Of a DNA stretch of 64,000 nucleotides, positions 28,401 through 60,400 are shown in pieces. A program made the translations under genes and the position numbers. The stretch comes from Schmidtea polychroa (taxonomy: Eukaryota), in contig CM097886.1 of NCBI GenBank assembly GCA_044892525.1, positions 76,570,001 through 76,634,000 on the forward strand. Direction: 5' to 3'. The notes under the pieces were generated by a model, which was given only the letters and a program-made list of their open reading frames with translations, did no database searches and was not told where the DNA came from. Position 1 is the first letter of the stretch. Every line of letters starts with the position of its first letter.

Positions 28401-31400
28401 TCAGAAGCGGCTCGGTAAGCAGAGGGAGCAGTCGATGGTACAGATATGTCGTCGAATGGAGCTTACATGGTTATATGTACGGCAGTTAAATCAAACACTA
28501 GAAACTATCGTGAAGTTTCGAGTAGAGGATCAGGGGATAATTCACGATCTGAGAACAAGCAGATCCTGGAACTGCGAGCAGGCGCTCACATAAATACTGG
28601 AGTCAGTCGCGTTCCGACCTAATCCGAGAATGAATTATTCCCAGACAACTTTTAGGGGTGCCAGTAGCTAAAAAGGTTAAGAACTATTGATATTTATTAT
28701 TTTATTATTTTTTACTTTAATTATATTAAATATTTTTAATTATTTGTTTATTTTATTTAATTTTTTTAATTTAATTATTTAATTATTTATTACATTAATT
28801 ATTTTTAATTATTTATTTAATTTTTTAAAATTAATTATTTTATTATATTTATTTTAATGACATTTAATATTTTAATTTTTTATTTAAAATTTATTAATTA
28901 ATAGATTTTACTATTTTTATATTTATTTCTTAATTTTTTTTAACTATAATAAATATTTTTAATTATTTGTTTTATTATATTTTAATAATTACCATTATTT
29001 TTTTAAAATGCATTTTAACATATCTAATTTGCATCTACTCAATACTGTTAGATTTTGTTCTTAATGCGAAGAAATGTTTATTAGCAATACAACTATAGTA
29101 GATTAGTTTTTAATGCAACGAACATCTATTGTTATTTTGGTACTTCTCTGATATACCGCAGCTGGAAAAGTTATTTTTTATGAAATATAAATTTGCATCA
29201 TCACCTAAAATACTCATAAGACCGTTACTAACACAAACAGAATATATTCTGACAGGATTATTTTCGAAAATTATCGATTAATTTCTTTTACCCTTGAATT
29301 ATTTAAAGAAGTTAAAGAATTATTTGAAGAAATTAAAGAAATTTTCGTGGTTTTGATTGGTGGCGCCCAACCGCGATTGAAAAAAAATTCTAAAAAAAAT
29401 CTATGTAGCTATCAAGGTTTATTTATATCTGTGTGCGGCCTCCTATGAAATGATCTATCTAGTTATTCTAAATATGTGGCACTAGCCTACATTTGTATGC
29501 TGTGACACTGCGGAATGCGACTACTTAGTCTAGAAAATAGATGCTCACGCAACTTTGTCATTTAGGATACCTCAGCCTCGGCTTTCAGCTGCTTATTTCA
29601 TTTCGTATAGGATATTGTGATGTGAAAATATCGTGACAGATTATTTTAACTGAATTATTTTAATCATTTTGTGTAAACTTTTTGAAAAGATATCTAAAAA
29701 CTAACACCAAGGTAAGTGGATAGTTCAATAATTTGTAATAAAATATACCAAACATCTTTGATTTTTGTAATTGTAATTATCTGTCTATGATACAAATGGA
29801 GAATACTTTTTAGCTACGTATGTATAAACGTATATCAAATATCCCAAAAGAGAAATATGCCTTTGGAAGTTTATACATCTAAGAAGCAAAAAAGGTGTGT
29901 ACGTGGAAAAGCAAAACAGGTTATATATTGATGAAGTTCAAAGCATATTTGGATCCATCTTCAAATATGTTACAAAAACTGATATTACCCAAAGTTCATC
30001 AAAAGAAACAGATTCTAATTCTTACGTTGATGTAAGGAATGATTAAAATAACAGCGACATTACAAAAATGACAACAATCCATGAAAAAGACGAATCACCA
30101 TGGAAAAAGGTAATAATATGAATAAATCATTAACTATGCGGGGCTTGAGAAACGTCTCACATTGGAGTATACCCGTTTCTAACTATGTTTGAATTGAAAT
30201 CATAAACAAAGGAAGTGAACATTTCCAAAACAGAGCAGGACCATTTAGACCTGTATCTAGGTACTGATTAAATACTAAAGGCAATGATCGACATCTTTCA
30301 AAAGAATTGTTTTATAAAATGCCTGATGGTGAAAATATTCTGCGATCGTGGATGGTTTACTCTTCTATCACTAAAAATCTGTACTGCTTCTATTGCGTTT
30401 GTTTGCTGCCACCAATAGCACTAATATACAAGATCTGCATTTGTGACTGGATTTCAGAAGTGGTGAAAACTAAATCCTAAAGTGACCGACCATGAAACCT
30501 CAAATGAACATCTGGAAATTGTTGAAAAGTTGAAAAAACTTTAGAAATGAAGCTAAAATTGAAGAAAACAATAGATGACACTGCCTTGCAATTAATTGAT
30601 ACTGAAAAACAGAAGTGGAAGGGTCTTTTATCCAAATTTTTAGATTTAACTTTGTTTCTGGTTAAACAAAACCCAGCATTTCGTTGAAGGAGAAGGCTCT
30701 ACAAATAAAGGCAACTTTTTAGAACTAGTCAAACTACTTTCAATGTATGATGTAGTGCTGAAAGAACACATCTTGAATTTGAAGCATGGTAAATCATCAA
30801 AAGTATAATATCGCCAGATATATAAAATGAATTCATAAGTGTTTTATCGAACAATGTAAAATGTAAACTTGTCAACAAGATTAGCAAAATATTTGGTGGC
30901 CGGACAAAATGTCACGGACAAAATGTCGTGGACAAAATGTTATGTGGACAAAATGTCACGGACAAAATGTCATGGACAAAATGTCATGGACCAAATGTCA
31001 TGGACAAAATGTAATAGACACAATGTATTGGACAAATTCTGGGTTGGGAATGACTATACAATGTTTTGCCATTCTATATCCTTGTTTTACAAGCCGACAC
31101 CAAAGTTCAATCGGCCGGCCGAATGAAGACGGCCACACGGGGTCCACATCTACAACCGCACGTTGTACAGTGGACATGTGTACACATAATTATATAGTAT
31201 CACCCATCCCAAATCAATAAACGCACAGACTGCGAGCCTTCGCAGTAGGGGAGAAAAGAAAACAATTAAGCAGAGGGCAAAATTCAATGGAAAAAGTCCC
31301 CACTGCGGAGTTTTAGAGCATCGTTCTTAAAATTTCCCAAAACTTTGGTTTGACACTTTTTTGGGCATACAAATTCACCTTGGCCTTCGCAATAAAGTCC

Positions 31401-33495: not shown

Positions 33496-34807
33496 CGTTT
33501 CATTATAATTTTTACTAAAACCTATTTATACTTTTGATTTAACAAAACATTTTAACTTGTTTTTAAAAAACAATCAAGTATTGTATAAATGTTATTACTT
33601 TGAACCATTTGGCACATTCATTTATCCTTTTGCTTCTTTGCATGCTACTAGATGTGAGGTTCAAAAATAACAGTTCAATTAAATTTGTTTTAAATAAATG
33701 GTATAGTTAATCTTGATTATTAAGACAGAGACTGAGATATCTATTTTACAACTGCTGCTGCACGAATCAGCTTATTTTACACACGACAATATCGCCAGAA
33801 CATGTTGGCTAGAACATTTTGAGTAGGAAATTTTGACCACGACATTTTGTCCACGAAATTTCGTCCCGTGACATTTTGTCCTAGAACCAAATATTTCAGT
33901 GTCATATTTGATAGCACACCCGATATTTCACATGTTTATCAAATGTCTGAAGTGATTCGTTTTGTGAAAATTGATAATAGAAAAGTGGAAGTATTCCTTG
34001 GATTTATTCACTTAAAAGGAAAAAGAGCCGCTGATCTTATTGATAAAATTCTTAGGCTTAGATATTATAATGTGTTCTTCTCAAGGCTATGAAAATGCAG
34101 TTATTGTGAGCGGGATACATGGAGGAGTACAAGCCATTAATAAAACAAAAAAAACTGTATTTTGTGTATCTTTTCTTACATTTTTTACATTTTTTTCTGC
34201 TTCCACTAGCCGCTGGCAAGTGCTTATTAAAGACTTTTTCAACAACGCGTTGGAAAGCTCATTGTGCTGCAATAAAATTATTAGCAATTTTTGATGAGTT
34301 TGTGATTGCAATTTGGAAATTAAATGATCAACAAGAGAATGTAGACACCAGAGGTATATAATGTCACATTTTTCTGTGTTACCTTTTCATTTAGAATGAT
34401 ATATTAATATATAGCGCTCATATAACGCATCAATAAAATATTTGCTAGATTTTGATAATTTTAAAAATTTATAAAAAAAATTAATTTTTTTTAATTTTAA
34501 AAAATAATTTTGAATATTTTTTTTTAATTTTTAAAAATTTTTTTTGAATTTTTTGTGTGATAATTTCAGGCAATTTTAAAAATATTTTTAATCTGATCAA
34601 TATTCATTAAACTCGTATTTAAAATTAGTCATATTGATTGATAAATATTGTTGGGTATTTTGTGCAAGTCGGTATTACTGTCTGACTCCTTTGTGTTCTT
34701 TTCGAAATTAAATAAACAACCCAACACAAAATCTTTATTTGAGACTAATACACTTTTATTAATTCAATCACACTTGATACAACCCTTTTTTGTCTAATAC
34801 TAATACT

Positions 34808-37230: not shown

Positions 37231-38169
37231 TTAGTACTGTATCGACGATTAATTTTGGTTGTTTACTTTTGTCGTCTTTTGTTTTTTGACAATGTAAGTG
37301 TTTTACGATTTTCCAAATAATTTATATTAACGAGTGCTGACTGTAATTATCAAAAAAATTATAATAAATAACTTAGTTGGGGTATAACATAGGTAATGTT
37401 CTAGGCCCCTAAGCGGTAGTTCATCATTCAATTGTAACGTGTCAAGCGTGACGTAGTTTAGGGGTTAGTCTGGTGCGAGTGCGCCAAAATGTATGCTTTG
37501 TCTAGGGCGCCATTTTGGCTAGGGCCGGCCTTGAATAATAATAAACATCAATATCTTTACTGATTCATAGTTAATTTTTTACTAAATTCAATGTCAATTG
37601 AAAAGAAATTAGAGGTGAAAATTGAAAGAAGCTCTTATAAGAAAAATAATAATATTAATATTAAAAAAATGGATTTAACTATAGTAAAAGCTGAAAGTTT
37701 CTCAACTAAAATGTGCAATTACATTGCTCCTAATATTATTTATATTTAGTTAAATTCTCCACATATATTACTGGTGGGTTACTGGTGGTTGAATGATTGA
37801 GTGCTGTTACCAGCGTAACCCAAAATACAACATTGTTTTTCCGCTTGGTACCCGTTGAGTGATCAACGTTGGTACTGTACCAAGGGTTGAGTACTCGCAA
37901 AAAGTGAGCGCATCAAAGCACTATAGTTGTCGAGTACTCCGTGGGTTCACGGACTACCGATAGAAGGTGTGTGTCCGATTTCTCAGGTCCCTTTATCAAA
38001 ATTGTTTTCCCAACCTTATGCACAAACTCTCATTTCCCAGGCAATCATAAACTGTACTAGTCATTATTTTATCACTACGAAACGTGCAGTATTTTAACAA
38101 GGAACATATTATTTGAAGACTACCACAATACATAAAAATACTACAAAACACCTAAAACCGAATATAAGT

Positions 38170-38673
38170 TCAAACAGGCTTATTGGTAGGACTGGCCAAT
38201 TCCGTCGCAGCTGCTAGTGACGAATTTGCTTGTCGCTCGTATTCGGCCAGTCTAGCTTTCTTCAATTTTTCCCGAATATTTCGGCCTAACCGCTTTCTTT
38301 TGGGTTTCTCTTTCGCGGCCGGGGGGTATATTGCTGCTAGTTCCACGGTCAACGGCCGGATTTGGCTTATGGCGGCTCCGTGAACTACTTGTTCATTACG
38401 TTCGGTTTTTAACGCGCGGAGCTGGAGTTTCAGTGCCCGGATCTCCATCTGATCCTGCGCAGCTTGAGTCTGCAGTTGAAGGACCTGCGCCACCTTCTTT
38501 TTCATATCCTCGGGACTAAACCAGGTGCTTTCTAGTTCCCGGCACCGTCCCTTGAGCTTGTCTACTCGTATGCGGAGCTCCTCGGACTGTTTTTGAGCTT
38601 CTGCCCTATCTCTTCGCAGATTTTCCAATAGTTTGAACACTAGATAAATTCAACGATTATATTCTTGCAGCAT
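38170..38673 (-). CDS. Coiled-coil, basic (NLS-like) accessory protein; in-frame TGA at codon 8
   Basis: aatag-t-ATG at 38673; MLQEYNR*IYLV is in frame with the 156-aa ORF; KPKRKRLGRNIREKLKKAR. Confidence 0.55.
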
Positions 38674-38849
38674 ACTATTCATTCAATTATAAAATAAAAT
38701 CAATATTATAAATAAACATAGTTTCGGATGTTAAGCACGCAATACACAAGATGATTTATTAAAAGGACTGAAATAATTATCACTAAAATCAAAGTTTAAT
38801 AAAGTCACAACTGAATGATAATTTGCAAAAACAAAATTTTGACGATGAG

Positions 38850-39215
38850 TCAGTTCAGTCGCTTGCGAGGCCTTCCCCTCTTCCGCGGGGTTGCCTCGGC
38901 CTCTTCTAGGTCCTCCACGGTTTTTCCCTCTTTTTCTGCTTGGATTTGTAGCTCGATCTTCTTGAGTCGCATCTGAGCTGCTTCTACCTCGATGGCCGCT
39001 CGGTCGCGGGCCTCTTGCAAAAAATCGTTTGTGGGCTCTGTTTTTACCCACGCCGGAGCGTCCGGCTCCGGCCCACTCCTGATTACTGGGCCAAAGTTGT
39101 CGAGGTCCAAACCCCGATTCCAATCATGGATACGGTGCCATATGTACCGTGTACGGAGTCTGGTAAGCATCTGTCGGTCGGCTTCTTCGTGGCTATCGCT
39201 GTCAGAGTAGGACAT
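38850..39215 (-). CDS. 121-aa AT-hook/coiled-coil protein
   Basis: ATG preceded by attattttgtag-aa; C-terminal RKRGRPRKR AT-hook; VKTE SUMO consensus. Confidence 0.65.
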   Translation of the reverse strand: MSYSDSDSHEEADRQMLTRLRTRYIWHRIHDWNRGLDLDNFGPVIRSGPEPDAPAWVKTEPTNDFLQEARDRAAIEVEAAQMRLKKIELQIQAEKEGKTVEDLEEAEATPRKRGRPRKRLN

Positions 39216-40164
39216 TTCTACAAAATAATAATCAAGCCCCTCTATACTGATTGAGATACGACGTCAACCACAAGAGTTTGTTGACCCTTTTTCCCTAAAA
39301 AAAAAATATTTTATTTTAAGACTAACATCTATAAGCTTAGGAGCAGTGGAATAAGATTTCCTACTTTATCAAAACAAACACAAAAAAAAAAAGGAATTCC
39401 GTCAAAATTCGTTTGTTTAAATTAATCATTTCCATTCAAAATTTTGTTTACCACTGAGTGGTAATTTTAATTACTATTTATAAATTTTAATTTATATGTT
39501 AATAAAATGTGAATTTTTTTTTAGATCGTCATTTTTAGGCCACTAAATTCGGGCACGCTGGGGCGACAGGTACTAGCAACGAACTAAGCTCTTCGTCTGC
39601 TTACCTTTCCTTCGGTTGTGCTCGTTATGAGTGGTTTGCTCTACATGCAAGTAATTTATTTGATTTTTCTACTTCCTTATTTTTTAGGCGATAACATTAG
39701 GAACCTCGATCGAGTAAGGGGAATATATTAGCTTGGAGTAGTCTTCCCATAGTTCTTCCCAGGGAATGACATTTCATGCCCAATATTTGATTTGGACCCG
39801 CAATTTGTCCCTCGCAGAAAATTGGAAATTTTTCGGGAATATTTGTATTCTGTATGTAGGTAAATCTCTGCGAATTATGGCTTATTTATTCAATTGCATG
39901 GTTCGCCGGAGTCATCCTCACCATCTCCTGGAAACTCTTGATTGTCATAGCCCCGTCTTGAATTTTTCCTTAAGGTTTCTCTGGGGGGGGGGGGTGTTGC
40001 TAAATATAGATTTTCAGTTAGGAACGTTTTTATTGGGCAAAAGAATTGACTCCAAATCTAGATATGGGGAAAAATCAATAATTGATTTTTTGCTTTCCTA
40101 GTAAGTAATACTAATTATGATCATAACCGTAAAAATGGAGATAACGAGGATAACAAATGATCGT

Positions 40165-40310
40165 AGTGGTAATAATAATAATAGTAATAGTCATAATAAC
40201 AATAATGATAATAATAATAATGAGAATAATAAGGATAGTAATAAGAACAATAATAGCAATAATAATAGTAATAATGATAATGGCAACAATAATAATAATA
40301 GTGATAATAT
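40165..40310. repeat. (AAT)n-like degenerate microsatellite
   Basis: aataataatagtaat... run. Confidence 0.85.
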
Positions 40311-40559
40311 AACTTTATATTTTACCATTCGTATTTTGGCTTTCACCATTTAGGGATTCATATTTTATGAGTTCGAAGGTTACATTTTGCACTTTACAGG
40401 TTTTCGTCTACGATTTTCAATTTTTTATCTTACAGTTTATAAATTCATACTTTAGAAGTTCTCATCATACACTTTATAATTTATAAATTGTTTATTTAAC
40501 ATTTTACCATTTTATATTTTTTACTTCCTAATTTTCTATTTTCAGATTTATAGTTTCAT

Positions 40560-41000
40560 GGTCTACCATTTAGAAATTTGGATTCTTGATTTATGATTAT
40601 ATGGTTTAAATTTTTTGTTCAATATTTTACGACGTTATGTTTTCGACTTAATGGTTATGATTTATACAATTATAGTCTACTATTTAGAAATTTAGATTTT
40701 TACTTTATGATTATATAGTTTTTGCTGACAATTTATATTCAACATTTTACGATCTTACATTTCAGACTTCATCGTTATGATTTGCCCTTTTATGATCTAC
40801 AGTTTAGATTTTTGATCCATAGTTGTATAGTTTATAACTTATAATACTATATTCGGTATTTTAGACTTTATGATTATACTTTACACTTTTAAAGTCTACA
40901 ATTTAGAAATTTAGGTTTTTAATTTATAGTTGGTAGTTTTATATTCAGTAATTTACGGTTTTAGGTCTATAATTTATCAATATAATTATCTCCAAGCTAT
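40560..41000. repeat. Degenerate ~100-120-bp tandem repeat, ~4 copies
   Basis: gtctac(c/t/a)atttagaaattt(a/g)g anchors at 40561, 40675, ~40795 and 40894. Confidence 0.65.
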
Positions 41001-42908
41001 TATAGTTATTTATAAAAGTTATAATCAATTATTTATACCTTTAGGAATATGTTACAGTGAGAATTTAGATTCGGGATTCTTTTAAATTTATAACTTTTTC
41101 CTTTACGTTGGATTCATTAAGTCGGTGATTTATTCACAGGTCTATCCAAATTTAAGCTCTACTTAGACATAGGCCGAAGAATTTTACCATTTCTATTATT
41201 CCAATTACCATGGGCTCCTATTACCAAACCTAATTCGGCATATGTCCAAGTGTACCAAAATATTATTATTGATCAACCAACTACATTAATGTGCTTGCAG
41301 AATTGTGTAAGTTTAGGTATGAGCTCTACTCAATTTAGGACCTTAGTGTGGAGTCGTTGTTTATGATTTTGAATGTGGATTTTTCATGTGTATTAAACGA
41401 AAGTCGGGAAGAATATTGCTTCCATGGCCCCACTGTGACCACTTCTACAAACCTTAGTGTTGTGTGCTGAGTCAACCATTTACGGTTGACCTTGAATAAA
41501 TACAAAGAGTCAGGCGGAGGGTTTCCTCGACCTAACTCCATGGCAGGACCATGAAGTAGTTCGACCTCCGGCTGACCCGAACAAAAAGAAATCATATAAT
41601 AAATATCACTATAATAATGATAATGCGTGTCTGCATGTCCTGTTAATAACGATTTTAATAACTTGGATGCAGGACTGAACAACGACGCAGGAATACCAGT
41701 ACGCCGTTGATCACTCATACATCGCAAAAAATTTTAAGCAAAAATAGATTTAAAATACCATCTATATAATTAAACAATTAATATACAAATAAAGATCAAT
41801 GCTTACTATCGATTTTGGAAATTTCGTCACAAAAATTTGGCATAAAAAGTGATTGATTGTGACTGAAACGTGTCAGTATATATACCTATTTTGTACACGT
41901 GTATGTATTGATGCATTAAAACAAACTCGAATTCTTTTTATTCCAGAATTTTCTATTTTACGATTTTGCTATTTTTAATGGCAATTTTTGTGCCATAATT
42001 TTTGTTTTTATTTTTATATTTTTATTTTTTAATTATTTTTCATTAATTTTACGTCCATGATGGATTTGGAACGGTTCCAGAACATTCTATTTTACTTTTA
42101 ATTTAATTTTTATTTTAACTGATGTTTTTATGAATTCTTTTTGAGATTTTTTTTTTTTTTTTTTTTTTTTATTTTTAATACTAATTTATTTATTTTCCTT
42201 AACTTTTGTTGTTCTAGATAACTTTTGTGATGGTCATCGCCATTTTTATAGAATGTTCTGGGTTTTTCTGGAATGTTTTACTGTTTTTATCGTCTTTTAA
42301 GTTATTCGAGTCTGTTTTTTGTAACTCTGTGTTTATTTGGTTATTTTTGAGTTAGATTTTTGCATCACTTCTTGCTTTTGTATAATTTTGTTTAATTTCT
42401 TTGTTTATGTTTTTGTTGCTTTCTCCTTTAGTTAATATTGTTTATTTGATGTAATTTTAATATTTAGCTAAACGTCTTGCTTTTGCATGTTGTGTACCTG
42501 CACCTTTCAGTCACAATTCAAGTTTGGGTCTAGAAGTCAGTTCTAGCCCAACATAAAACACTCGGGGGCCCATAAAATTGCGACCCGCAATTTAAATCAC
42601 AAGATGAAGAAAATTATTTTTCAGAATACTTGCACTATATTACAAGTGCCTACATGCAAATTGGGTCTACGAGCTACAGGGTCGTGACCTCAATACCCAC
42701 ATACATAAAAAGGCTACTATTATACTACATTCTACGGATGGGTTGAAAGATGAAGAAAAAGAACGACCGAGGTCGGTCCACACAAAAATAAAATTATCAT
42801 GCTCAAGAATCAATGTTATTAGTCACAATCAGTCTCAGTCTTTGAAATCATGATTGTTTGATAATGTTTTATAATGTCATGAAATGTTTATACTGTCGTG
42901 ATGTCACA

Positions 42909-44727: not shown

Positions 44728-44818
44728 ATCTACAAAAATATACATATCATATTTCCTTTTGTCTTCTTTTTATTCTGAATTTTTCGGTTTTGTAATTTTT
44801 ATTTGGTTTTGGTTTTAT

Positions 44819-44819
<1 letters not shown>

Positions 44820-44862
<43 letters not shown>
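44820..44862 (-). repeat. 43-nt poly(A) tract (element sense strand)
   Basis: T43 on the plus strand, ~33 nt past the stop of the 44895 ORF. Confidence 0.9.
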
Positions 44863-46575: not shown

Positions 46576-47754
46576 TTATTGATCGGCGTAGCGGAATCCT
46601 TTGATTCGCTGCGCAATCCTCTGTCTGCACATCGGACATTCCTTTACTTTTCTACTACATGTGGCACATGCGATCAAATGTCCGCATGGCATATGAATAA
46701 CTTCTACACTCCTCTCCCAACACATAGTACATTTGATATCTCGTAAGATAGCTGTTTTGACCATTGATTCTTCTTTTATTTTTGTTTCAGGTTTTTCTCT
46801 ATACTGGGTTATCGCTCTGATCATATCGTACGTTGTTGTTGGTATATGTACATTTTTCTGTAGTTTCTCTCTAATCATGTTCTTTGCCCTTGTCGTGCCT
46901 ATTCCGGCTGCTTTCAACGCTCTGCACATGTTGGGTTTGTCTACCACTTCGTCAACCTCTTCCTCTGTTACTAGTACTTCCGGATATTCGGTTTCTTGTT
47001 CGTTGTGATATAGGCACCATGCTTGATGTCTAATTTCTGGTATGCCTTCTTCCGGTAATCTCTGTTGGCTTTCGCATCTTTCACACTTTAGTATTTGATT
47101 TTCTGTTAGGTAGAACCCTCTTATTGCTAATTCAGGTCCTCTCGTATCATCTCCGAACGTTTTCATTCTATTATCTGCTATTTGCGTGAGGAATTCCCCT
47201 TCACAAGTTGGAACATACTCATCAACGATTCTGGTTATCGCGATGCTCATTTTCCCTCCTTTTTCGTCTTCAGTTTTCAATTTCTCCAAGGCTTCGTATT
47301 TGATTTCCGGTTTGTTGTGTACATCAAATCCCAGTACGAATAGACAAGTTGGGAATCGTCTACGATGTTCCTCCTTTGGGTGTTCTCCTTTTTTCCATTC
47401 TGCTAATTTCCCTTTACAGAAACGACATGTTACTTGATCGGGTATCTCTGGTTTTCCGGAGAAGAAAAATCCGTCGCGTGCTAGCGCTCGGCTCTGTTCC
47501 TTGGTGAAAATGGTCTGATGTTCAAATGACAGATATCTCTGGTTCTCACATCTGAATTGTTCATTATCTCCCAGTTTCAAATTTTCGTGTACCCAATTAT
47601 AATCGTTTCCCATTCTCCGATAATATGCGTAACTACTTGGTTTTGTTTTGCTGACTTCCGCATCCTTCACTCTTTCTCTAGGTGACATATTGTCCTCTTC
47701 CTCTCTCATTGTGATCGTTTTCTTTCGGATATTCGGTCTCTCTTGATTAATCAT
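46576..47754 (-). CDS. Inhibitor of apoptosis protein (BIR + degenerate BIR + UBA-like + RING), intronless
   Basis: LARDGFFF...VTCRFC...W..GEHP.EEHRRRFPTCLFV; C-terminal RING CTMC...PCGHLIACATC....CPMCR. Confidence 0.92.
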   Translation of the reverse strand: MINQERPNIRKKTITMREEEDNMSPRERVKDAEVSKTKPSSYAYYRRMGNDYNWVHENLKLGDNEQFRCENQRYLSFEHQTIFTKEQSRALARDGFFFSGKPEIPDQVTCRFCKGKLAEWKKGEHPKEEHRRRFPTCLFVLGFDVHNKPEIKYEALEKLKTEDEKGGKMSIAITRIVDEYVPTCEGEFLTQIADNRMKTFGDDTRGPELAIRGFYLTENQILKCERCESQQRLPEEGIPEIRHQAWCLYHNEQETEYPEVLVTEEEVDEVVDKPNMCRALKAAGIGTTRAKNMIREKLQKNVHIPTTTYDMIRAITQYREKPETKIKEESMVKTAILRDIKCTMCWERSVEVIHMPCGHLIACATCSRKVKECPMCRQRIAQRIKGFRYADQ

Positions 47755-47894
47755 CTATAATAAATTTCATCATTTCTTTTTACATTTTCTTTTTCTAATT
47801 TTTATGGTTTTGGCAAGTTACTTTACTGTATACAATAACTTTATATTTACTTTACGTCGTTTTTACAAAATATTTACAGTTCCCTCCTATCCGT

Positions 47895-49319
47895 CTATCG
47901 TATTTCTATTGTTGGTCCTTCCTCATCTAGTTCGATTAGGAAGAATATAGTGTCCTTTTCTATGTAGGACCCTTCATTAAATTGGTATAGCTGCATAAAC
48001 TCTGCTACTCCTACCGCAGGATTAACCTCTGTAATCGGTTTATTCCCTGCTGGACTGGATGCTCGAAAACACATTATATGTGTCTTTTTTGCTCCTAAGA
48101 GAGATATTTTTAATCTATGTCGGAATGGCCATGCTATTAGGTCGTCAAAATCTCCTTTACAAATTTGCATATATATGGACATGCACCGATCTTTAAACTT
48201 TCCTTCACCATTTGGAAACCATCTCAATTTCATCTTGTATCCATGTTTCTTGGCGTAGAATGGTTTGCTCACTATCGTTGTCTGGATTCCTTGCTTTGCT
48301 TGCTCCATTATTTCCGTTATTCCTTGGATTTTCCACATGTATGGTAGTATTGGTAGTTCCTCTGTTGTCAGTTCCTTTGTAGTCCATTTGGTTTGTAATT
48401 TAGTTACTTCGACTAATTTGTCGTCTAATTTCAACATCCTTTGTGTTACGGCTTCTCTCGTATTTTCGAAGCTTTCCTGTGAGCTCAGCATTTCTTTTAT
48501 CATGATTTTATGTGATTTGAGTTCGTCTTTGACGTCTTCAATTGCTCTTGCTGTTAACTCTATTGCTCTCATCATCTTTTGCATGTGCTCGAATGTATTC
48601 TCCTCCACATGCTTCTTCATTTCTTCTGCTGGTAATTGTGCTCTACAGTCGAATGTCACCATTGGGCATTTTATTGCTTTTCTCGTGCATATCTCCCAAT
48701 GTTCATTTAATCTGACGTTGTTAATTTCTCCACACTCGTTTGGGCATTTCCCTGTATATTCGTCGCAAATCCGTCTTTCTACTGCGTTTCGATGTTCCAT
48801 TTCGATTTCTCTCCAATTAGCAGTTTCTCCGCAAAATTCGCATTTTTCCGTTCGCGCTTTGCATTCCCCTTTATGTTTGGTTTTCTCTTTTCGTAAAAAC
48901 TTTACCGTGCATGCTTCGCATTCCGATTCTAGATATTCGCATACGTCTGTATGGGCTCTTAACTCCTTTACTCGGCCTGTCCATTCGCATGACCTTTGGG
49001 TGCATCTTATTTTCACTTCTCTGATTTCTCGGTTCATTGCTCTATCCGGTATCGTACCAGTGGGGACCAACTTAAATGCTTCTCCACATCCTGGACAAGT
49101 TTCTCGTTTTAGTCTGGCTAATCTTATATCACACCCTCGGCACAATCTACACCCGCATCGAGTTTGACTTGCTCCAATTAATAATCTTCTACATGCTGTA
49201 TCGGCACATAATAATCTCTCTTCGAACTCGTCCGGCTCGGCTTGGTATTTTCTCATCAACTCATAGTTAATCTTTTGTTCCTCTGCTTCTCTCCGGTTTT
49301 CCTCTGCTTTGTTTTGCAT
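47895..49319 (-). CDS. TRAF-like protein (RING, TRAF zinc fingers, coiled coil, MATH), intronless
   Basis: CGCRLCRGC..TCPGC, DRAMNREI, CEWTG...H..VC, MATH YMWKI..SKPFY..GYKMKLRWFPNG..SIY..ICKGDFDDLIAWPF. Confidence 0.93.
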   Translation of the reverse strand: MQNKAEENRREAEEQKINYELMRKYQAEPDEFEERLLCADTACRRLLIGASQTRCGCRLCRGCDIRLARLKRETCPGCGEAFKLVPTGTIPDRAMNREIREVKIRCTQRSCEWTGRVKELRAHTDVCEYLESECEACTVKFLRKEKTKHKGECKARTEKCEFCGETANWREIEMEHRNAVERRICDEYTGKCPNECGEINNVRLNEHWEICTRKAIKCPMVTFDCRAQLPAEEMKKHVEENTFEHMQKMMRAIELTARAIEDVKDELKSHKIMIKEMLSSQESFENTREAVTQRMLKLDDKLVEVTKLQTKWTTKELTTEELPILPYMWKIQGITEIMEQAKQGIQTTIVSKPFYAKKHGYKMKLRWFPNGEGKFKDRCMSIYMQICKGDFDDLIAWPFRHRLKISLLGAKKTHIMCFRASSPAGNKPITEVNPAVGVAEFMQLYQFNEGSYIEKDTIFFLIELDEEGPTIEIR

Positions 49320-49408
49320 TCTACAATGATGATTTTTAATCTTGGGATTTCTACTTGATTATAACTCTATTTATTTACAGGATTATTTACATTTCACTCC
49401 TTTTTCTC

Positions 49409-49864
49409 CTACACATCTACCGTCGAGTCCGGTTCCCCTGTTCCTGGTAACCCGGTCATCCACTCGACTAAACTGGTAATATCATCATGTTGTCGATTTT
49501 CATGCAACCTTCTAATTTCTTCCGCTTGCCATCTGATTTGGCTTATTAACTGATTGTTATTATACTCTAGTTGCGCGATTATTTGGTGTTGTTCCTCTAT
49601 TTTTGTAATATATATTGCATTTCTATTAATACTCTCTATCAACGCCGTTTGGTTTCGTACCCAGTGCTCTTGAGTCTGATTTGTCAATTGGGTCATTAAT
49701 TCACACTGTACCCTCCACATGGATCCTGTTGGCTGACTCGGCTGGTTTGGCACGTTCATTTCCATCATGTCTACTGGATGTACATTCATAAGCGGCTGTT
49801 CTCTTACTTCAACAACATGTGGTATCCTATTTGGGTGTTCTTGCTCTTCGTTTCTCTGGTTCAT
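49409..49864 (-). CDS. 151-aa small coiled-coil accessory protein
   Basis: Intact ORF, Q/N/E-rich heptads; tattataaatag-ga-ATG. Confidence 0.6.
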   Translation of the reverse strand: MNQRNEEQEHPNRIPHVVEVREQPLMNVHPVDMMEMNVPNQPSQPTGSMWRVQCELMTQLTNQTQEHWVRNQTALIESINRNAIYITKIEEQHQIIAQLEYNNNQLISQIRWQAEEIRRLHENRQHDDITSLVEWMTGLPGTGEPDSTVDV

Positions 49865-50012
49865 TCCTATTTATAATACATGGTCATCATACTTGTTTTT
49901 GATTTTTCTACATATTGTTTTAATTTACTACTTTTATTTTGTACATACTACTACTATTATCACTACTTTTATTATTTCATTTATACATTATTTACAACAA
50001 CTCCTCCTCTCG

Positions 50013-51407
50013 TTATACCAGTGTCGCCATGGGGCCGGAATGCAGCGTGCGCATTCCCCCATATCTTTCGTCCGTTATTCGGTATATATCGACTTCGTGT
50101 GTCCATTCGTTCGGTGTGGGTATTCTTGGTAGTTCCGACATCCACAATCCGCTGGATCCGGGATCCTCTACCACCTCGTATTCTTCTAGATTCAGATTCT
50201 CTGTTGGAATACCGTATTCAAATTTTTCCACTTTGGGCCATTTTCTTTGGTTTCTCGGTTTTTGTTTACATCTTTTGGTGGTTCTTATCCACTGAATCAT
50301 TGCTAACGCTATTATCGTGCTTACTATCGCGCTAGTTATCCATATCATCTTTGTGATGATCGTTGTTCCATTATTTGTTTTTTCTGTCGTTAATATTGTA
50401 CTACCTGTGGTATTTGTTTCTGGTGCTTTGATTTTCTTGAATGCTTGATGTAATCGTTCCTTCTCTTTTTCTGTTAGGTGACTGTGATTTTCCCGTTTCT
50501 CTCCCCCTTCTTGATCTCGGGGTATCCACGGTATGTTTATTAATTGGGGTTTTTGTCGAGTTATTGGTTGACATACGCTGGTTCCTCTTCCTTTCTTAAG
50601 GATACATACTTGGTATCGTTCTTTCCGTTTCCCTGTCTCCATTTTAACGTCTGTACCTTTGTCTATCGGTGTTGTTGTACAGTCGATTATTCCCGTCTTA
50701 TCCATTACACATATCCTTATGATTGGTTCTCCTTCCTGGTTTTTGACTGTAATTACCTCTTCACCTTTCTTGTTGAGGTTAATAGTTATCTGCACTTCCC
50801 GTCTTTCGTCTTTAATTACTTCGTTAATCCATGTTGTTGTTGTTATTAATTCGGTTTGATTTTGCTCTGTTGTTGTTTTTGTACTAACTGATTTGTTTGG
50901 CTTCTTGGTTGTTATCCCCCTCAATGGATCTTGTTTCATTGCCATACTCTTTGGCTTGTCTTTTCTTGGTGCAGTTCTTGTTCCTTTACATACTACTATC
51001 CCTTGTGTTCCTGCGCATACCACAGTAGGGGTATTTGGTTTGACCTCTCCCCAGAAGAATTTGTGGTCTTGTGTCATATCAGTTATTATGCATATGTCTC
51101 TGTCTTCTCTGATGCATACATGTGTAATTGATCGACTCCCTTTATCTTCTATTTCGATACCTTCTTCCAAAATGTTGAGTTGAAAATGTACTCCGGTTTC
51201 GTTGGCTCTTTCTAGCTCCATTTCCTCTGTTGATATGTCTCTACAGATGTCATAATCTCCACATAGCCTGGGATCTCTTTTTTGGCTGCTAAAAATCTTT
51301 CCTTTTGTTATCGATCTGAAATCACAACTTACTCCTGTTCCTTCCATTAGTTGCACACATATTCCGACGGCATTTCCGTCGTAATCCTGACTTTTATCAT
51401 AAATACT
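50013..51407 (-). CDS. Type I membrane glycoprotein-like ORF overlapping the polyprotein end (-1 frame)
   Basis: Frame open from 51407; Cys-paired ectodomain, Thr-rich stalk, TM MIWITSAIVSTIIALAMIQWI, tail with Tyr motifs; no own signal peptide or upstream ATG. Confidence 0.75.
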   Translation of the reverse strand, partial: SIYDKSQDYDGNAVGICVQLMEGTGVSCDFRSITKGKIFSSQKRDPRLCGDYDICRDISTEEMELERANETGVHFQLNILEEGIEIEDKGSRSITHVCIREDRDICIITDMTQDHKFFWGEVKPNTPTVVCAGTQGIVVCKGTRTAPRKDKPKSMAMKQDPLRGITTKKPNKSVSTKTTTEQNQTELITTTTWINEVIKDERREVQITINLNKKGEEVITVKNQEGEPIIRICVMDKTGIIDCTTTPIDKGTDVKMETGKRKERYQVCILKKGRGTSVCQPITRQKPQLINIPWIPRDQEGGEKRENHSHLTEKEKERLHQAFKKIKAPETNTTGSTILTTEKTNNGTTIITKMIWITSAIVSTIIALAMIQWIRTTKRCKQKPRNQRKWPKVEKFEYGIPTENLNLEEYEVVEDPGSSGLWMSELPRIPTPNEWTHEVDIYRITDERYGGMRTLHSGPMATLV

Positions 51408-54400
51408 TCACCTTCTTGGGAAGCTTCTCTTACGATTCCCATATTTTTTGTTTCTGTTAAACAGATGGATGTTAATATTATAAATATTCTTTGTAGTAGG
51501 ATTGGCTGGATTTGATTTCGACACACTATGCTATGTAGTGGGGACTTTCGTTTTTTGTTCTCCGTTTTGTCGAATCCTTGATCTTCACCTCGACATTGGT
51601 CTTCTTCGTCTTCTTCCAATTCCTCATCATCACTCGTTGTTTCTCCGCCTTCCGGATTCTGTTCTCTGTCGTTTTCCTCTGGGTTGTTATCGTTATCCCC
51701 CATCCTTTCGTCGTCGTCGTCGTCGTCATTCCTCTCACCCGGGGTTTTCCTGAAAATGTCGTCCTCGACATTTGCTGCTTTGATCATCTCCTCGTATTTT
51801 TTAATTATCTCTTTTTTGTCGTTGTGGATACTTTCTCGTTCTTCTTTGGTTCCTTGATATTTCCGTTGTTTCCGGTGCCATTCCCACACTAGTATTTCTA
51901 GTTGCTTTTTCATCGCATGTGTTTTTGTGCATTCCCACCAATTACCTGTCAATTCTGTTCTATTTCTCTGTAATATTGCTTTAATGGTTTTTGGCATTGG
52001 TGGTCTTGAGTATATGGCGCTTCTTAGTACGATATTTTCGTTGTTTTGGAATTGATTTATATCAATTACTTCCGCTCTTAATTCGTTTTGTTTCCATTTG
52101 ATTAATATTGCTGCGGTTCTGTCTAAGTTTCCTCTGATGGCTTCCAGAATTGGTTCAATGCTCTGTCCCAACACCTCGGCTTCTTCGGTTGTTGCATTTC
52201 CTGTGATAAAGTTCACTATACTAGGTCTTTTTGACCTGACGGCATAACGTAATACGGTTCGTTGTTTGTTATCTTTTTCTTTCAGCGTGGATCCCGTTCT
52301 TAATAATTCTCTGAGTACATCTCTTGACGCGCCTATTGCTATGGCTTTCATCAGTGGAGTTTTTCCTTTACTGTTTTTGACGTTTGTTGATTGTTTGCAG
52401 TTTTCCATTATTCGTATAATCTCTAAAGCTCGTTTTTCTTGTCCTGCTTTCACTGCATGATGGATTGGCCAGTTATTACTCAAATCACTTGTTAGGAACA
52501 TGATTGGTAATCTCCGGATTAGTTCATATATTTGAGTCGGTATTTGTAATCCTTCGGCATATCTTCGTCCTTTCGCATATCTTTCTGCTACTAACATTAG
52601 TTTGCCCAATACTTGGTATTTATTGGTTATATCGGCCCATTCTGGTACAATTTCTCGTGCTATTTTTATTGTCATATTCCATGTTGCTTGGCTCCTTGCC
52701 ATTGCGTCAGCTTCGCTTTCTGCTTCAGTTCCTTTATGGGCGCTGCTGCTTGTTTCTCCTCTCAACATGAATATTCGTCTTGTCTGTGATCTAGTTAATC
52801 TACCGCTTACTTCTGGTTCCGTTGTGGCATTTGTTTGTGATCTCGTGATTATCCTTCTTGTTTCTGGGTCTTTAGTGGCAGTTTTCGCTACTGCTTTGCA
52901 TCGACATGTATTCACATAAATGGGTCTAATTAGTGGATTGTTAACCAACTTCACTCTAGCGTTGTTCTCGTTTACATAGATGATTTCATATGGCCCTCTG
53001 CCATTACGTTGTAATTTCTTTGCTGTTCCTGGGATTAATTCGGGTGTTTCTATAATAACCCAATCTCCGATTTTAAATTGATGGTTTTGCACGTTCTTCT
53101 TTTTATCATGTAATTCCTTATAACTCTCTTGGTTGAATCGGATGTTCATCCCTGCGGTTTTCCATATTTCTTGCATTCTCTCCTTGAACTTTGTCACATA
53201 ATCATCTATCTCCATATATTGTGAGATTGGCGGTTGGTATTCGAGATCCATCGGCATGTTGCATTCCCTTCCATACATGAGTTTAAACGGACTCATTTTC
53301 GTTGCTGAGTGTATTGACATTCGATAAGCCATTAGACACAACTTAATATATTCATCCCAGTCCTTTTGATGTTTACTCACGTAATTGGACATCATGTCTA
53401 TTAGTATGCCGTTAAATCTTTCTGTCTGACCATTCGTTTGCGGGTGGTATGGTGAGGTTCTCAATTTGGCAATTCTAAAATAATTTGTCACTTCATTTAT
53501 TATCTCGCTCATGAAATTAGTTCCTTGGTCAGTTAAGATTTGTTTTGGTGTTCCATATCTGCAGCAGATCTCTTCCACTAATATCCTTGCAACCGTTCGT
53601 GCTTTCTGGTCTGGCATCGCAAATGCTTCAGGGAACTTAGTCAGATAATCAGTTATTACCAATATATACACATTTCCACTGTTAGTCTCTGGTAGTGGTC
53701 CAACTACATCCATTGCAATCATTGTCATCGGTTCTGGCGGTATCGGCATTGGTTTCAATGGTGGCTTTAGTTTACTGCCCGTTGTTTTTCTGGTTGCGCA
53801 TATCAGGCAGTTCTTTATCCATTCTTTCACGTCATCGCTCATATTTGGCCAGTAATATTTCTGTTTGAGCCTTGCTTCTGTTTTCTTGGCTGACATATGT
53901 CCGCCCAATTTACCATCGTGGTATTGAATCATAATTTCTTTCCGTCTACTTTCTGGTAGACACATCAATCGTTTGTCGCCATCCATTACCAATAGCCATC
54001 CTTTCTCGATCGTATATCTGTGACGATTTTTCTCCATGTGTTCTTTTAGTCGATCATCGTTGTTGAATATTTTCATATCGTTTTTTTCCAGGAACTCAAT
54101 TATTAGTTTTAATTCATTGTCTTCCTTTTGTTCGTTCTTTAGATTGGTAAAATCGATATCTTCCGCGATTATCAGGCATATTCGTCTGACGTCATGATCC
54201 ATGAGTTCTTCAAATACAAATCTCGACATGCAGTCTGCATTTGCGTTTGCTTTTCCTGACTTGAATTTGATGTATGGGGAATATTCTTGTAACTGCATTG
54301 CCCATCTCATCAATCGACTAGATGCCTCTTTATGTTGGCCCAACCAAACTAGAGGTTGATGGTCCGTAGTAATAATTATCTCGTGTCCCCATAATAAATA

Positions 54401-57400
54401 TTTGAAATGTTTTATCGCCTGAATTATTGCTAAGGCTTCTCTTTCTGTGACCGAGTAATTCTTCTCGTGTTTTTTGAACGTCTTGCTATAATATCCGATG
54501 ACTCTTTCTCTTTTCTCCTCATCCCATTGTCCTAGCACAGCTCCTGATGCGTATCCACTTGCATCAGTTGCTAATAAAAAAGGCTTTTTGAAATCTGGGT
54601 GGATTAAGATAGGCGAGGCTATTAGTTTATCTCTGAGCGATTCGAAAGCTATTTGCTGTTCCCTTTCCCACAGAAATGGAGTATCTTTTTTTGTTAGTTC
54701 TTGAATTGGTTTTGCGATAGTTGCATAATTTTTGATAAACTTGCGGTAGTATCCGCATAATCCCAGAAATTCTTGTACCTGAGTCACGGTTTTTGGTATC
54801 GGACAATTCTTTATTTTCTCAACGTTTCTCGGATCTGGTTCTTTTCCTTTTGCCGACACAATGTGTCCTAAAAATGTGACTCTCTCCTTTGCCCAGTCGC
54901 ATTTTGACGGTTTCAATTTCAGCTTCCATTGTTTCAGTCTTATGAATACGTTTCTGATGTCGATTAAGTGTTGCTCGAAAGTACCTGAATAAATTAACAG
55001 ATCATCGATATACACCATACATTGTTTGATCCCGTGTGTCACAAAGTTCATACATCTCTGAAACGAAGCAGGTGCGTTTGTTAATCCAAATGGCATCTTT
55101 TTAAACTGATATAAATCTTTTCCGATGGTAAAGGCTGTCTTTTCTCTATCTTCCTCTTTAACTTTAATTTGCCAGTATCCACTCTTTAGATCTAAAGATG
55201 TAAAGTATGCTGCTCCATGTAACATCTGTAACATTTCGTTAATATCTGGCAGTGGGTATGTATCCCTTTTTGTTACTGCATTCAACCTCCGATAATCGAT
55301 ACAAAATCTCTGTGTGCCATCTTTCTTTTTGACCATTACTACTGGAAATTGCCAGGGTGAACAGCTAGGTTCGATCACTCCGGCATCTAACATCTTTTGT
55401 ACCTCCTCCTCTGCTACCGTTTTCTGTGCTTCGGCTAATCGATATGGTCTCAAAGTTATGGGTGTCTCATCCGTTAATGGTATAATGTGTTGCGTTACAT
55501 CGCTGGTACCCAAATCCAAATCTGAAGCCGCAAAAATATCTTTAAACTCAATCAGTAGCTGTCTGAGTTGTTCCTTTTCGTCTTCATTTAGGAGTTCGCT
55601 ATCGATGGTCCATAATTCTTTTTCGTCTGCTCCCTCGCTTTTGATCTCCGGCAGCTCAATGTTCATCATTGGTGTGAGTTTTCCAAGTCTCTCGTTTTCG
55701 TAGATTACTTTATCTTCCTCATCAAAATTGGTGATGTTGATGGGTATCTCGTTATCCTCATTTATACTGACAATTTCTCTTGCCAATGGCAGCTCCCTTC
55801 TCTTCTCGAATTTTTGACTTGGTTCAAATATCATATCTCCTTTGGCTTCGTTATCGACCTTGACATAACATATTGTCTGGGTACGTGCTGGTATTATCAT
55901 TTTTTCGGAGCATCTCACTTCTGTTCTCATTGTGCATATCTGTCCAGTTTTATCTTTTAATTTCATGGAACTTAAATCAATCACAATTTCTTTCAATAAT
56001 TCCGGCATTACATCTGTTCCAATTATACATGATACGCTTAGCTGTCTAATGACTGCGAGGTACGTTGTAACTTTAACCCCTTTGTATTCGATCGTTGACC
56101 ATACTCTTCCTACTACCGCTATGGATTGTTTGCTGCATGTTATTACATCCATGGTTGTCTCCTCAATGCATGGCCATAGTCTTCCTGGTAGCATATTCAT
56201 ATTTATTGCTGAGATATTTGCTCCGGTATCAATCATTGCATCCATCTCTATTCCGTTTACTTCGACCGTGATAGTTAACGATGGTCCTGCTGGTGTCTGC
56301 AATACCGCAATCGTTCGTGTCTCCACCTCTTGCCCCACATTTTTAACTGGCTTGATCATTGTTGGGTCCATTGCTGCCCAATTTGGTTCATACGCCGTTG
56401 GGTAAATATTTGGTACGGGTAATCTCCCGGTTCCCATTCTTATCCGTTCTCTCATTGTCCCTGGTCGTCGCATTGGCCCATTGGTTGGTGCCTGTAAATA
56501 TGGTGATCCCCATGGTTTCCTTTTTTCGTTTTCCCAAGTGTCTGTATTTTTGTTTATCAACATTACTCCTCCTTGATTATTATCGTCATCGTCGAAATCA
56601 TCATTGTCATCACTATCATCGTCTCGTCTGAGATTCATCCACTTTTTCCACTTCCCGGTTCTTTTCGCTTTCTCTTGAGTTCTTTCCGCTTCCAATCTCA
56701 TTATCACTTTGAACTTACGTCCGACTTCTTCATCTGTCCCTTTCATTTGCGTTAATATTTTCAACAATCTTTTTATTCGATGAATATCCTTTGAGTGTCC
56801 ATGCAACACCATTGTTTTCGCTAGGAACGGTAAGAATCCAATTGCAAGTTTCCAATTTACTTTTCTCTCGCGCTTATAGATGTCAAAACATGCTAGCATC
56901 TGAGTTAGTATCACTCTAACTATTTGTATTATCAGAATTATTCCGAGTATCCCTGCCATCATTTGGCCAAATACCAAAAATCTACCCCACATAGCCTTCA
57001 TCATGTTTGCTGTTGCTTGTTGGTAGTGACTTGGTGATAATAATAGCTCGTAGTTCGGGCTCTCCCCATAATTATTTCCTCCAGAAATAGTCACTATATT
57101 TGATAAGATTGCTTGTCTTTGCGCTGGGAATAACAGGTGGGCTCTTGCTGATTCGAGATCTTTTGGTGTATATAATCCACTCTGGGATACGTCTATCGGC
57201 TTGAACTCTAGTTCTGTTGTTAGTTCCGTCAATCCAAATTTCTTGGGCGTTACTACGATTGTTTTACTTGGGAATTGAACCCATTGTCCATCTTCTTTTT
57301 CATACATTGGTCCATATGCATTACTACAATTAAACAGATTTGGTTGAAACCCTACCGGGTTCATTACCCTAGTGACTGCTTGCACAAACCTGGGTTTACC

Positions 57401-60400
57401 TTCGTGGATAATTTCGAGTTCGTTTGCACACTTATCTCTTGGTATTGTAGGGTTTTCTGGCAATCTTGCCATTATCTTTTTGCATTGGTAGGTGTACATC
57501 ACTTCGCCCACGATTCGTCCGAAATATCCTTCCTGTAATGGTAGTAACGGAATTGCGTTATCTGGATTTGTAATCGCCATTGCTAATTTGGTTCTCAGTA
57601 TTTCTTTGTTGAGCAGGCAATCGTTTCTTAACAGATCATGGTAGACTTTTTCCGTGGATGTTAATCCTCTGTGATATAAGAAATCCATCTTATTATTAGC
57701 GTATAAATATAGTTTGACATCCTTTTCGCTTAGTCTTCCGACTGCATTTGCTAGGGTTCTCCGCGACAAGTAGATCCCTTTATAATTGGTGCTGATCACC
57801 ATCTCATCGCATTTACTCACCATTTTGTTCTTTATGAACCTCATTCCTATTCCATCGTCTTTGGAGATTATCGCTGTGGGTGTTACTTCCGATTCCAATT
57901 TCGATGTTATTACGTCTTCTCTGAATCCTTTCCTTGCTCTCAACTCTTCCATCGCTCGTTTTTCTGCTTCTCCTTTTGGTTCACTGTATACTTTCCCTTG
58001 GATTTCTTCGAATATTGCTGTTTTGAGCAACATTAGTCGACATACCTTCTGATCCGCATGGTATACCAGAGTTGACATTCCGGTTGAACATGATCGATCT
58101 GATGCGAGACAACTTGGGTATTTCTTCATTGCTTGCGTGTCAGGGTCGAAATAACCTTGATACCTTTCTAATTTAGCTTCGTAGCTTTCTATCACGACCA
58201 CTCCACTAACCAGTTGTCCGTTCAAGGTGTACGTTCCTGTCTCACATGTTCCGTCTCCTTTAGTGATTCTGCCTGCCGTATACACACGAGTCGTTTTTAT
58301 TTTTCCTGGTTCTGCAGCAATTTCAATCCCTTGCCTTAAGTGGATTCTCCCCGATCGGAATCCTTCCTCGCATTCCTCTCTTGATAGTAATATTACTGTC
58401 GATTCCAATCCCGGTTCTATGATTGTTGAGTGAGAGGATGAACCGCAGTGATGTGCAAATATCTTTCTGGTTACCGTACATTCTTGGACCATAGTTTTGA
58501 TGAAATCTGCTTCTTGATATACGTTGTACGAGACTGATGCCATGACTGTTTGTAATTTTCTTGGGTTTGCCGCTTTACAGTCTTCCGTATCCTTTAATGA
58601 ATATTTCTCATGGATTTTTATGTTGTCGCAGTCGTATACTGCAAATGACTCCGTTCCTTTGATACACATCATCCATATCAATATCGTGGTTATTATGGCA
58701 TTCATTCCCTTTCGACTTGCTCTTGGGTCGTTTATATTGATTGTTCCTTCGAATTCAGTTAGCAAATCGCGTAACTTTGCTTGCATCATTTCCGTTTGAT
58801 CTTTCTTCCCAGTTGATTCGATGAAGCTTCTCCATCCCCCTTGTTCAAGTATATATGGTTCTATTGATCGTTTAATTATTTCTGTTACTGTGAATTCGTA
58901 ACCCGTTGCGTTATATTTTGGCATTCGTTTTTTATATTGGCCGATAACGTTATATACTAAATATGCTAATCCCACTAAAAATCGATTTTGGTCCTCTGAT
59001 CTGCTTAATAGATGTTCCACAATTAATCTGAGTTCCACGGGATCTTTTAACGTTAATCGAATTTTATTATCCATGATTTTCATTATTATCGGTTTCAATA
59101 CTGCCCATAATTGTTTGGCTTCGGTCGGAATATTATCCTTCCTCATGACTCTTTTCACTTCTGGATTTGCTAATGCTAACATGTTGGCTAATAGGTCATT
59201 TATCCATCGTGTCCCTTGTTCTCGGACGCTTGTCTTCACTTTCACTTGTTTTACTAATGCACTTAGTTTATCCATTTTAGTTTTTACCTGCTCCATTTGC
59301 GCCTGAACTTTGGATTTTGGTTCGATCTCTGCTTTATCTGTTTTTGGTCTTCCTCTTGTTCGTCGATCCATAGCTGTTCCGGTTTCTTTCCGTTTTGGCG
59401 GATTGTAAGTTGTATCTTTTGACGTGGTCGCTCCTGGATCTACTCTCCAGTTGCTCCATTCATCGGTTGTGGTTACATCTTTATTGGCATCTCTTTCCAC
59501 GTTATCTAAATCCGTCTCGGCTTCCGTCGTTTCCACTGGTTGTCTCTGCGCGCATACAAATCCATCTAAATCATCAGTTGTCAGTTCACCTTCGTCGATA
59601 AATAGATCTCCTGATTGCGATGCTCTCATAATCTCGCCTGCTTCTACTATCTCTTGTAATTCATCCAGTATTTCGTCTTCTCCCGTTGTTTCGATCGTCA
59701 CTTCACTAACCGCATTTGGAACTTCTGGTGTGTCCAAACTTCCTGGTTGTTGGGTGGATGATTTTTGCTTTATCTCTCTTCTCCTTAGCTCTCTACCTGC
59801 AATTTTACTCACCGTTAATCTGTTCACAATTTCTCCTTGGAGTGGTGTCACACCGATCTCAATATCGTCGTCTAATGATCGTCCCTCGTGTTGTAAGTGG
59901 AATGGGAGTTCATAAGGTATTCTCTTTTTAACTTCTCTGACTTTAGCTGTCGTATAGAATTCCTTTTCCATTGGTTCAAAATCTGGCATGAATATTTTTA
60001 ATTGATATTTCTCAGGTGAGTTTTCGGCCCACTCTTGTTGTTTCCATTTCCGGATGATTTCACCAAATTGTTCAGGGTACCATACGTATACCCGTCGATA
60101 TTCTTCAATCGCTTTAACGATCTTTCGTAGATTTTGAATCCTTTTGCATGATTCGGCTATCCATTTTGCTAGTTCTACCACCGCTCGTCGACGATTTTTC
60201 GCCCCGTTTTGTAATATCTCCATCAACTCCTTACATTTTTGTGCTTCCAACAATGTTGCTGCTTCTTCCTCATCTGCGTCGGCGTCTATTGGTAGATGTC
60301 CTGAATCAGACACTCTTCTCCTCATCATACAGATTCTCGGTTGATTTTCTGGTATGTTCAGTCGTTGGTTCATTTCTTGTTCTGTTTCAACTTCTACTCT

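Follow-up and report, generated by a model that had tools for sequence, protein, structure and literature searches.

Known relatives

The Burro elements of planarians are retrotransposons of more than 30 kb with an internal region of about 25 kb, in which MATH, BIR, Bcl-2-like and ankyrin motifs as well as an in-frame env have been described, and they have been suggested to meddle with apoptosis and ubiquitination (PMC6431247). As cited in the accessible part of PMC13465017, Lee et al. 2026 showed that the 'B-IAP' of Burro1, a protein with a RING and a BIR, protects stem cells from caspase-mediated apoptosis, within an expansion that spans Geoplanidae and Dugesiidae. In the accessible part of a further study, BURRO1 is characterized as abundant, active and PIWI-controlled, and BURRO1 RNAi did not rescue the smedwi-2 phenotype, though the question asked there was a different one (PMC8532177).

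We analysed a stretch of 64,000 nucleotides from Schmidtea polychroa (assembly GCA_044892525.1, contig CM097886.1, positions 76,570,001 to 76,634,000), referred to as the window, for which a sequence-only reading had proposed a retrotransposon-encoded IAP. Its features are collected in Table 1. An element-borne IAP in Burro elements is an already published phenomenon, and the window locus is an instance of it. Like B-IAP as far as the accessible text describes it, the window IAP is an element-borne BIR and RING gene in a giant planarian retrotransposon; B-IAP is described there with one BIR and a RING, whereas the window IAP adds a divergent BIR and a likely UBA in between. The second BIR, the UBA and the acceptor-like sites before five of seven accessory start codons are possible additions to the published picture, though the original report may already cover BIR2, UBA or transcripts. 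A literature search returned no further description of a Burro-type IAP, which does not by itself establish novelty.

Among animal IAPs, XIAP, cIAP1/2 and DIAP1 show the same BIR(s)-UBA-RING order, and the first BIR of the window protein resembles BIR2 of XIAP including the Q197/K206 pair. The window IAP differs from these proteins by its two BIRs, one of them degenerate, by the absence of a CARD and by a longer RING tail. With the IAPs of baculoviruses (IAP3), nudiviruses, malacoherpesviruses and nimaviruses it shares two BIRs and a RING on a mobile genome; it differs in its carrier, an LTR retroelement, in its likely UBA and in sequence, with 10-28% identity in the listed fold matches. The many fold matches to viral IAPs are generic and give no sign of special kinship.

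Table 1. Features of the IAP gene and of the element carrying it. Positions refer to the window unless a genomic position is given.
Feature	Position	Strand	Remarks
3' LTR (TG...CA)	37772..42553	minus	
Accessory ORF, 324 aa	42909..43883	minus	hydrophobic N-terminus and C-terminal hydrophobic stretch, seen in the sequence
Accessory coiled-coil-like ORF, 261 aa	43960..44745	minus	
Accessory coiled-coil-like ORF, 532 aa	44895..46493	minus	downstream of IAP
IAP gene, 392 aa, intronless	46576..47754	minus	BIR, divergent BIR, likely UBA, RING
C3HC4 RING (aa 340-382)	46609..46737	minus	Pfam; all eight ligands present
Likely UBA three-helix domain (aa 268-320)	46795..46953	minus	dN/dS ~0.06
Divergent BIR2 (aa 195-247)	47014..47172	minus	four candidate Zn ligands, groove Trp lost, dN/dS ~0.04
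BIR1 (aa 70-140)	47335..47547	minus	Pfam; closest single-domain match XIAP BIR2; invariant groove residues
T-rich YAG, splice-acceptor-like	47755..47764	minus	directly before IAP ATG, conserved in 29/29 diverged copies
TRAF-like gene, 474 aa (TRAF zinc fingers, MATH)	47895..49319	minus	directly upstream of IAP
Accessory ORF, 151 aa	49409..49864	minus	no Pfam match; purifying selection
Accessory ORF, 444 aa	50013..51347	minus	no Pfam match over cut-off
Polyprotein, 4,237 aa	51347..64000	minus	start 60 bases past window end
Second IAP-type RING gene, BIR-less, 160 aa	G000:C2:76636751-76637233		upstream of gag; Pfam E 3.5e-12
5' LTR	G000:C2:76637957-76642735		beyond window

The element

The IAP gene resides in a Ty3/gypsy element of 34,964 bp with an internal region of 25,403 bp and LTRs of 4.78 kb. 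The two LTRs are 99.9% identical, differing by one substitution and one 3-base indel, and a 4-bp target duplication, TTAC, flanks the element on both sides. Near-identical LTRs, TG...CA ends and the duplication therefore indicate a recent insertion, and with pol domains also surrounding the gene, the claim that the IAP is retrotransposon-encoded is confirmed.

The polyprotein is ordered as Gag (with CCHC knuckles), MATH, a weak Bcl-2-like stretch, a mononegavirus-type fusion env, PR, RT, RNase H, IN and ankyrin, the env lying in frame ahead of PR-RT-RH-IN (Monjiviricetes_fusion, E 9.7e-68). MATH, BIR and ankyrin motifs are thus all present in the element. Burro1/GYPSM1 and Burro-2, -3 and -4 fall into the same size class and share the huge gag-MATH-env-pol-ankyrin polyprotein, the BIR motif and accessory ORFs, while their Bcl-2-like stretch has only a weak match here; the window polyprotein compares with 4,873 aa in Burro1 and 5,140 aa in the Dugesia tigrina element (PMC6431247). 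Set against Burro1 by description, the element may be a Burro sister family or the sister-species counterpart.

The Bcl-2 BH2-like stretch (window 58718-59317) matches Bcl-xL weakly over about 30 aa (E 0.5-1.4), and by its sequence it is a possible second anti-death module. Ubiquitin-like matches in the element proteins are weak as well (E 0.007-0.15). The dUTPase position of the element gave no match, nor did a word-index protein search with the TRAF-like protein. The 160-aa protein is composed of a helical N-terminal part followed by the RING, and an acceptor-like site precedes its ATG. The ATG of the 444-aa ORF overlaps the polyprotein stop codon (window 51345-51349), which we take to be a termination-reinitiation layout.

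Further observations concern the non-coding parts and the surroundings. A G-rich, primer-binding-site-like 18-mer lies 8 bases past the 5' LTR end (extended window ~67930-67950) and may resemble tRNA-Pro primer sites. The LTR interior holds two short minus-strand ORFs (window 38170-38505 and 38850-39215), one of them with an arginine-rich tail. A T run of about 40 bases (A on the element strand; window 44789-44862) lies between the ORFs of 532 and 261 aa and may be what remains of a captured poly(A) tail. The flank at window 4000-34400 contains decayed pieces of DNA transposons that by eye resemble hAT, piggyBac and MULE elements, and tandem repeats of 14 nt near 30902-31044 have an inverted partner near 33790-33866. 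A search of the 64-kb window for tRNA genes found none.

Domain architecture of the IAP

The coding region is one unbroken ORF whose ends coincide exactly with 46576 and 47754, so the gene is indeed intronless. Pfam recovers the canonical BIR at aa 77-140 (E 9.5e-16) and an IAP-type RING (zf-C3HC4_3) at aa 340-382 (E 3.2e-12), both over the cut-off, which confirms the proposed combination of a canonical BIR and a C-terminal RING by the very check suggested for it. The Cys3His zinc motif of BIR1 consists of C110, C113, H130 and C137. Against PDB sequences, 110 distinct matches were obtained at E <=0.01, led by NAIP, cIAP and XIAP. A word-index protein search returned two mollusc IAPs, and ESM Atlas matches of aa 180-335 were IAP clusters at <=0.84, taken as a lead only. 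For structure comparison, a single-sequence AlphaFold model (pLDDT 35) was discarded and an alignment-guided model was used instead.

Neither a second BIR nor a UBA is called by Pfam on the IAP, and the BIR2 fragment yields zf-C3HC (E 0.006). Against a BIR profile made with 200 of the 289 BIR segments of homologs, aa 195-246 score 12.4 bits, a value reached by none of 1000 shuffles, in line with the degenerate second BIR that had been proposed. R196, G213, C224, C227, H243 and C247 fall on columns invariant in 94 IAPs (MAFFT alignment); C224, C227, H243 and C247 are the candidate zinc ligands, their spacing is shortened, and the conserved groove Trp is absent. Judged by its sequence, the second BIR is real but degenerate. 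Its peptide groove would be lost, and its likely role is that of a structural or protein-binding surface.

The UBA region, the least certain of the four domain assignments, scores 1.7 bits against its profile, which 10 of 1000 shuffles reached (p ~0.01), and the profile matched none of seven other element proteins. The region has no match among PDB sequences and none to Pfam UBA. In the alignment-guided model, aa 268-320 form a three-helix unit (pLDDT ~90) which superimposes on the XIAP UBA (2kna) with a middling Z of 4.8 and an rmsd of 2.7 over 53 residues; this fold match is partly circular because the AlphaFold alignment included UBA-bearing IAPs. The loop reads A-G-I, where UBA domains commonly have M-G-F. 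On the strength of the model, aa 268-320 are likely a UBA, which may bind ubiquitin chains. Thus, the proposed BIR-BIR-UBA-RING layout holds for both BIRs and the RING, while its UBA is likely and not proven.

A BIR+RING tree of 136 sequences was built, as had been suggested; the donor, host or viral, is not settled by it because the IAP sits on a long branch (1.28) with support of 0.5-0.86. No host RING-IAP parent was found among 150 scored BIR matches, which are swamped by element copies; the search for such a parent gave a BIRC6-like exon, a truncated fragment of an element and a survivin-like gene interrupted by one short intron. The survivin-like gene and the BIRC6-like exon are the sole non-element BIRs among these 150 matches.

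Copies, linkage and selection

The genome searched is AT-rich, comprises 781 Mb and has four large contigs. At the DNA level, 315 candidate copies were found; the 40 that were scored are all 99.9-100% identical, 17 of them exact, including the window. The BIR family search yielded 309 candidates. Of 150 that were scored, 122 occupy an open frame of 387-400 codons. The other 28 are found in short frames and represent 26 apparently broken element copies and two host genes. Among the top 30 BIR loci, 29 match the TRAF-IAP-coiled-coil stretch of the window at 91-98%, and one is the BIRC6-like host exon. The codon analysis used the 20 of these 29 loci that have full-length ORFs, and nine broken loci were left out.

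Pairwise dN/dS between the window IAP and 19 distinct diverged full-length copies ranges from 0.08 to 0.25, where the pairs share branches and the choice of copies by BIR score and full length biases the set to intact genes. Fisher p values for two single pairs are 2e-18 and 5e-13. By region, dN/dS is 0.04 in both BIR2 and the RING, 0.06 in the UBA, 0.19 in BIR1 and 0.33 in the N-terminal 60 aa; a linker of 14 codons reaches 1.42, on very few changes. The 'degenerate' BIR2 is hence under tighter constraint than the canonical BIR1. Across subfamilies dS is about 0.13-0.29, and in each of the four domains dN/dS stays far below 1. Judged by selection, the IAP is functional.

Linkage was followed in 20 copies, 10 identical and 10 diverged: in all 20, the next 10 kb run colinearly into TRAF, integrase, RT and protease. 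In the 10 diverged copies, accessory ORFs and the ankyrin tail show dN/dS of 0.06-0.21, with 0-0.09 for the pol control. Near-identical young copies carry seven non-synonymous and four synonymous variants, and both variants common to two copies are synonymous. These counts are small and fit selection during element replication followed by drift after insertion; the simplest view of the selection between subfamilies is that it works on lineages of the element as they replicate.

The window copy itself is a mosaic. Compared over 47755-57700, it hardly differs from the main young subfamily between the IAP and ~55200; past this point, over the RT start, the protease and env, divergence is about 5% (dS ~0.23), a pattern suggestive of recombination between subfamilies.

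Peptide groove, RING and function

BIR1 finds its best single-domain match in BIR2 of XIAP (51.5 bits). In the alignment, Q107, K116, L117, W120, E124 and E129 correspond to Q197, K206, L207, W210, D214 and E219 of XIAP BIR2, and H223 is replaced by R133. As given in the accessible part of PMC6360406, Q197, K206, L207, E219 and H223 shape the IBM groove of XIAP BIR2, the BIR3 equivalents W310 and D/E314 do so likewise, and type I BIRs carry Lys or Arg at the E219 position. Apart from the exchange of H223 for R133, the residues of a type II, IBM-binding groove are therefore present in BIR1; BIR2 is without the Trp. The groove residues of BIR1 are invariant in 31 distinct copies, as are the eight ligands of the RING and its R377 and F387; C227 of BIR2 is changed in one of the 31.

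RING-IAPs bind processed caspases or their antagonists via the groove and ubiquitinate them via the RING, as stated in the accessible part of PMC3972657. BIR1 keeps a peptide groove of the XIAP BIR2 type and therefore likely binds caspases or their antagonists. By analogy to IAP biochemistry, the groove would catch active caspases or IAP antagonists by their exposed N-terminal IBM peptide, and the RING, together with an E2, would ubiquitinate what has been caught. Our analysis thus favours, as the probable reading, a purifying-selected accessory IAP of a Burro-type giant Ty3/gypsy element that acts as an anti-apoptotic ubiquitin ligase and keeps the host cell alive. The earlier proposal that the protein keeps host cells alive during retrotransposition or infection is upheld in its anti-apoptotic part, given the intact BIR1 groove and the reported B-IAP of Burro1; its timing is conjectural, as is a joint action with the TRAF on components of the TNF pathway.

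The IAP could act mainly in signalling: in a pair with the adjacent TRAF, comparable to cIAP and TRAF2, it would rewire innate-immune or stress signalling of the host by ubiquitination. The TRAF-like gene adjoins the IAP, is co-inherited in 20/20 copies and shows dN/dS of 0.10-0.17 to the 10 diverged ones; a second MATH domain occurs in the polyprotein, Foldseek ranks cIAP1 BIR3-UBA-CARD-RING (3t6p) as the top match of the IAP model, and BIR2, despite having no peptide groove, is under strong constraint, which would suit a surface for protein contacts. However, BIR1 carries the type II Glu (E129) and not the type I Lys/Arg of TRAF-binding grooves, and adjacency proves no partnership, as all accessory genes tested are co-inherited under similar selection. 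We consider a mainly signalling role unlikely.

Less probable still is a decoy or adaptor role, in which the protein by itself would have little E3 activity and would soak up antagonists or need the 160-aa RING protein as a heterodimer partner. The separate RING ORF is intact in 150/150 scored copies and its RING is 36% identical to that of the IAP over 44 aa. The RING tail of the IAP is extended, with 16 residues past the last Cys compared with 13 in 109 of 134 homologs, and a longer tail might alter dimer-dependent E3 activity. Against such a lack of activity, none of the RING ligands varies, nor do R377 and F387, and dN/dS of the RING is as low as that of BIR2; moreover, the result would be anti-apoptotic all the same.

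That the gene is a passenger, i.e., a captured host cDNA hitchhiking without function, is highly improbable: it is intronless, it has short-frame matches and its young-copy changes look neutral, but after insertion copies are expected to break and to gain private neutral changes, every zinc ligand is kept at <=45% identity to each of the 150 relatives listed, and the low dN/dS to the 19 diverged copies, in all four domains across subfamilies, refutes it. The gene is not confined to this copy, and the passenger view fails because the IAP is multi-copy, pol-linked and under purifying selection.

Expression route

A T-rich YAG 0-3 bases ahead of the ATG occurs in five of the seven stand-alone accessory ORFs, among them the IAP, compared with 75 of 662 element ATGs (binomial p 3e-4; 5e-7 under a stricter rule that was set post hoc). 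The eighth ORF is not part of this count, as its ATG overlaps with the stop of the polyprotein. Ahead of the IAP ATG, the site looks like the acceptor of a host intron. Planarians use spliced-leader trans-splicing, and according to the accessible part of PMC12582326 it resolves flatworm operons with gaps of <300 bp.

The accessory acceptors predict spliced subgenomic RNAs, either in cis from an LTR leader or by spliced-leader trans-splicing. The IAP would then have a separate spliced RNA as its template for translation, with the junction at the acceptor-like site ahead of the ATG, a route suggested by sequence alone. Contigs of four runs, guessed to be RNA and possibly DNA, cover the region; among the matches listed, none is joined at a predicted acceptor, which speaks neither for nor against this route. 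A more far-reaching and rather doubtful scheme combines an operon-like cassette, having one acceptor per start codon and possibly served by the spliced leader, with a ubiquitin ligase complex of the element for death and immune signalling, made up of the IAP with a repurposed BIR2, the TRAF and the second RING protein.

Implications

By carrying an apoptosis inhibitor and keeping it conserved, a retrotransposon acts like a large DNA virus. The element-borne IAP bears on transposon-host mutualism in planarian stem cells, a point published for Burro1. The detail of the present locus, i.e., a candidate IBM-binding BIR, a constrained non-canonical BIR with a likely UBA, a second RING and a predicted splice route, makes the mechanism testable.
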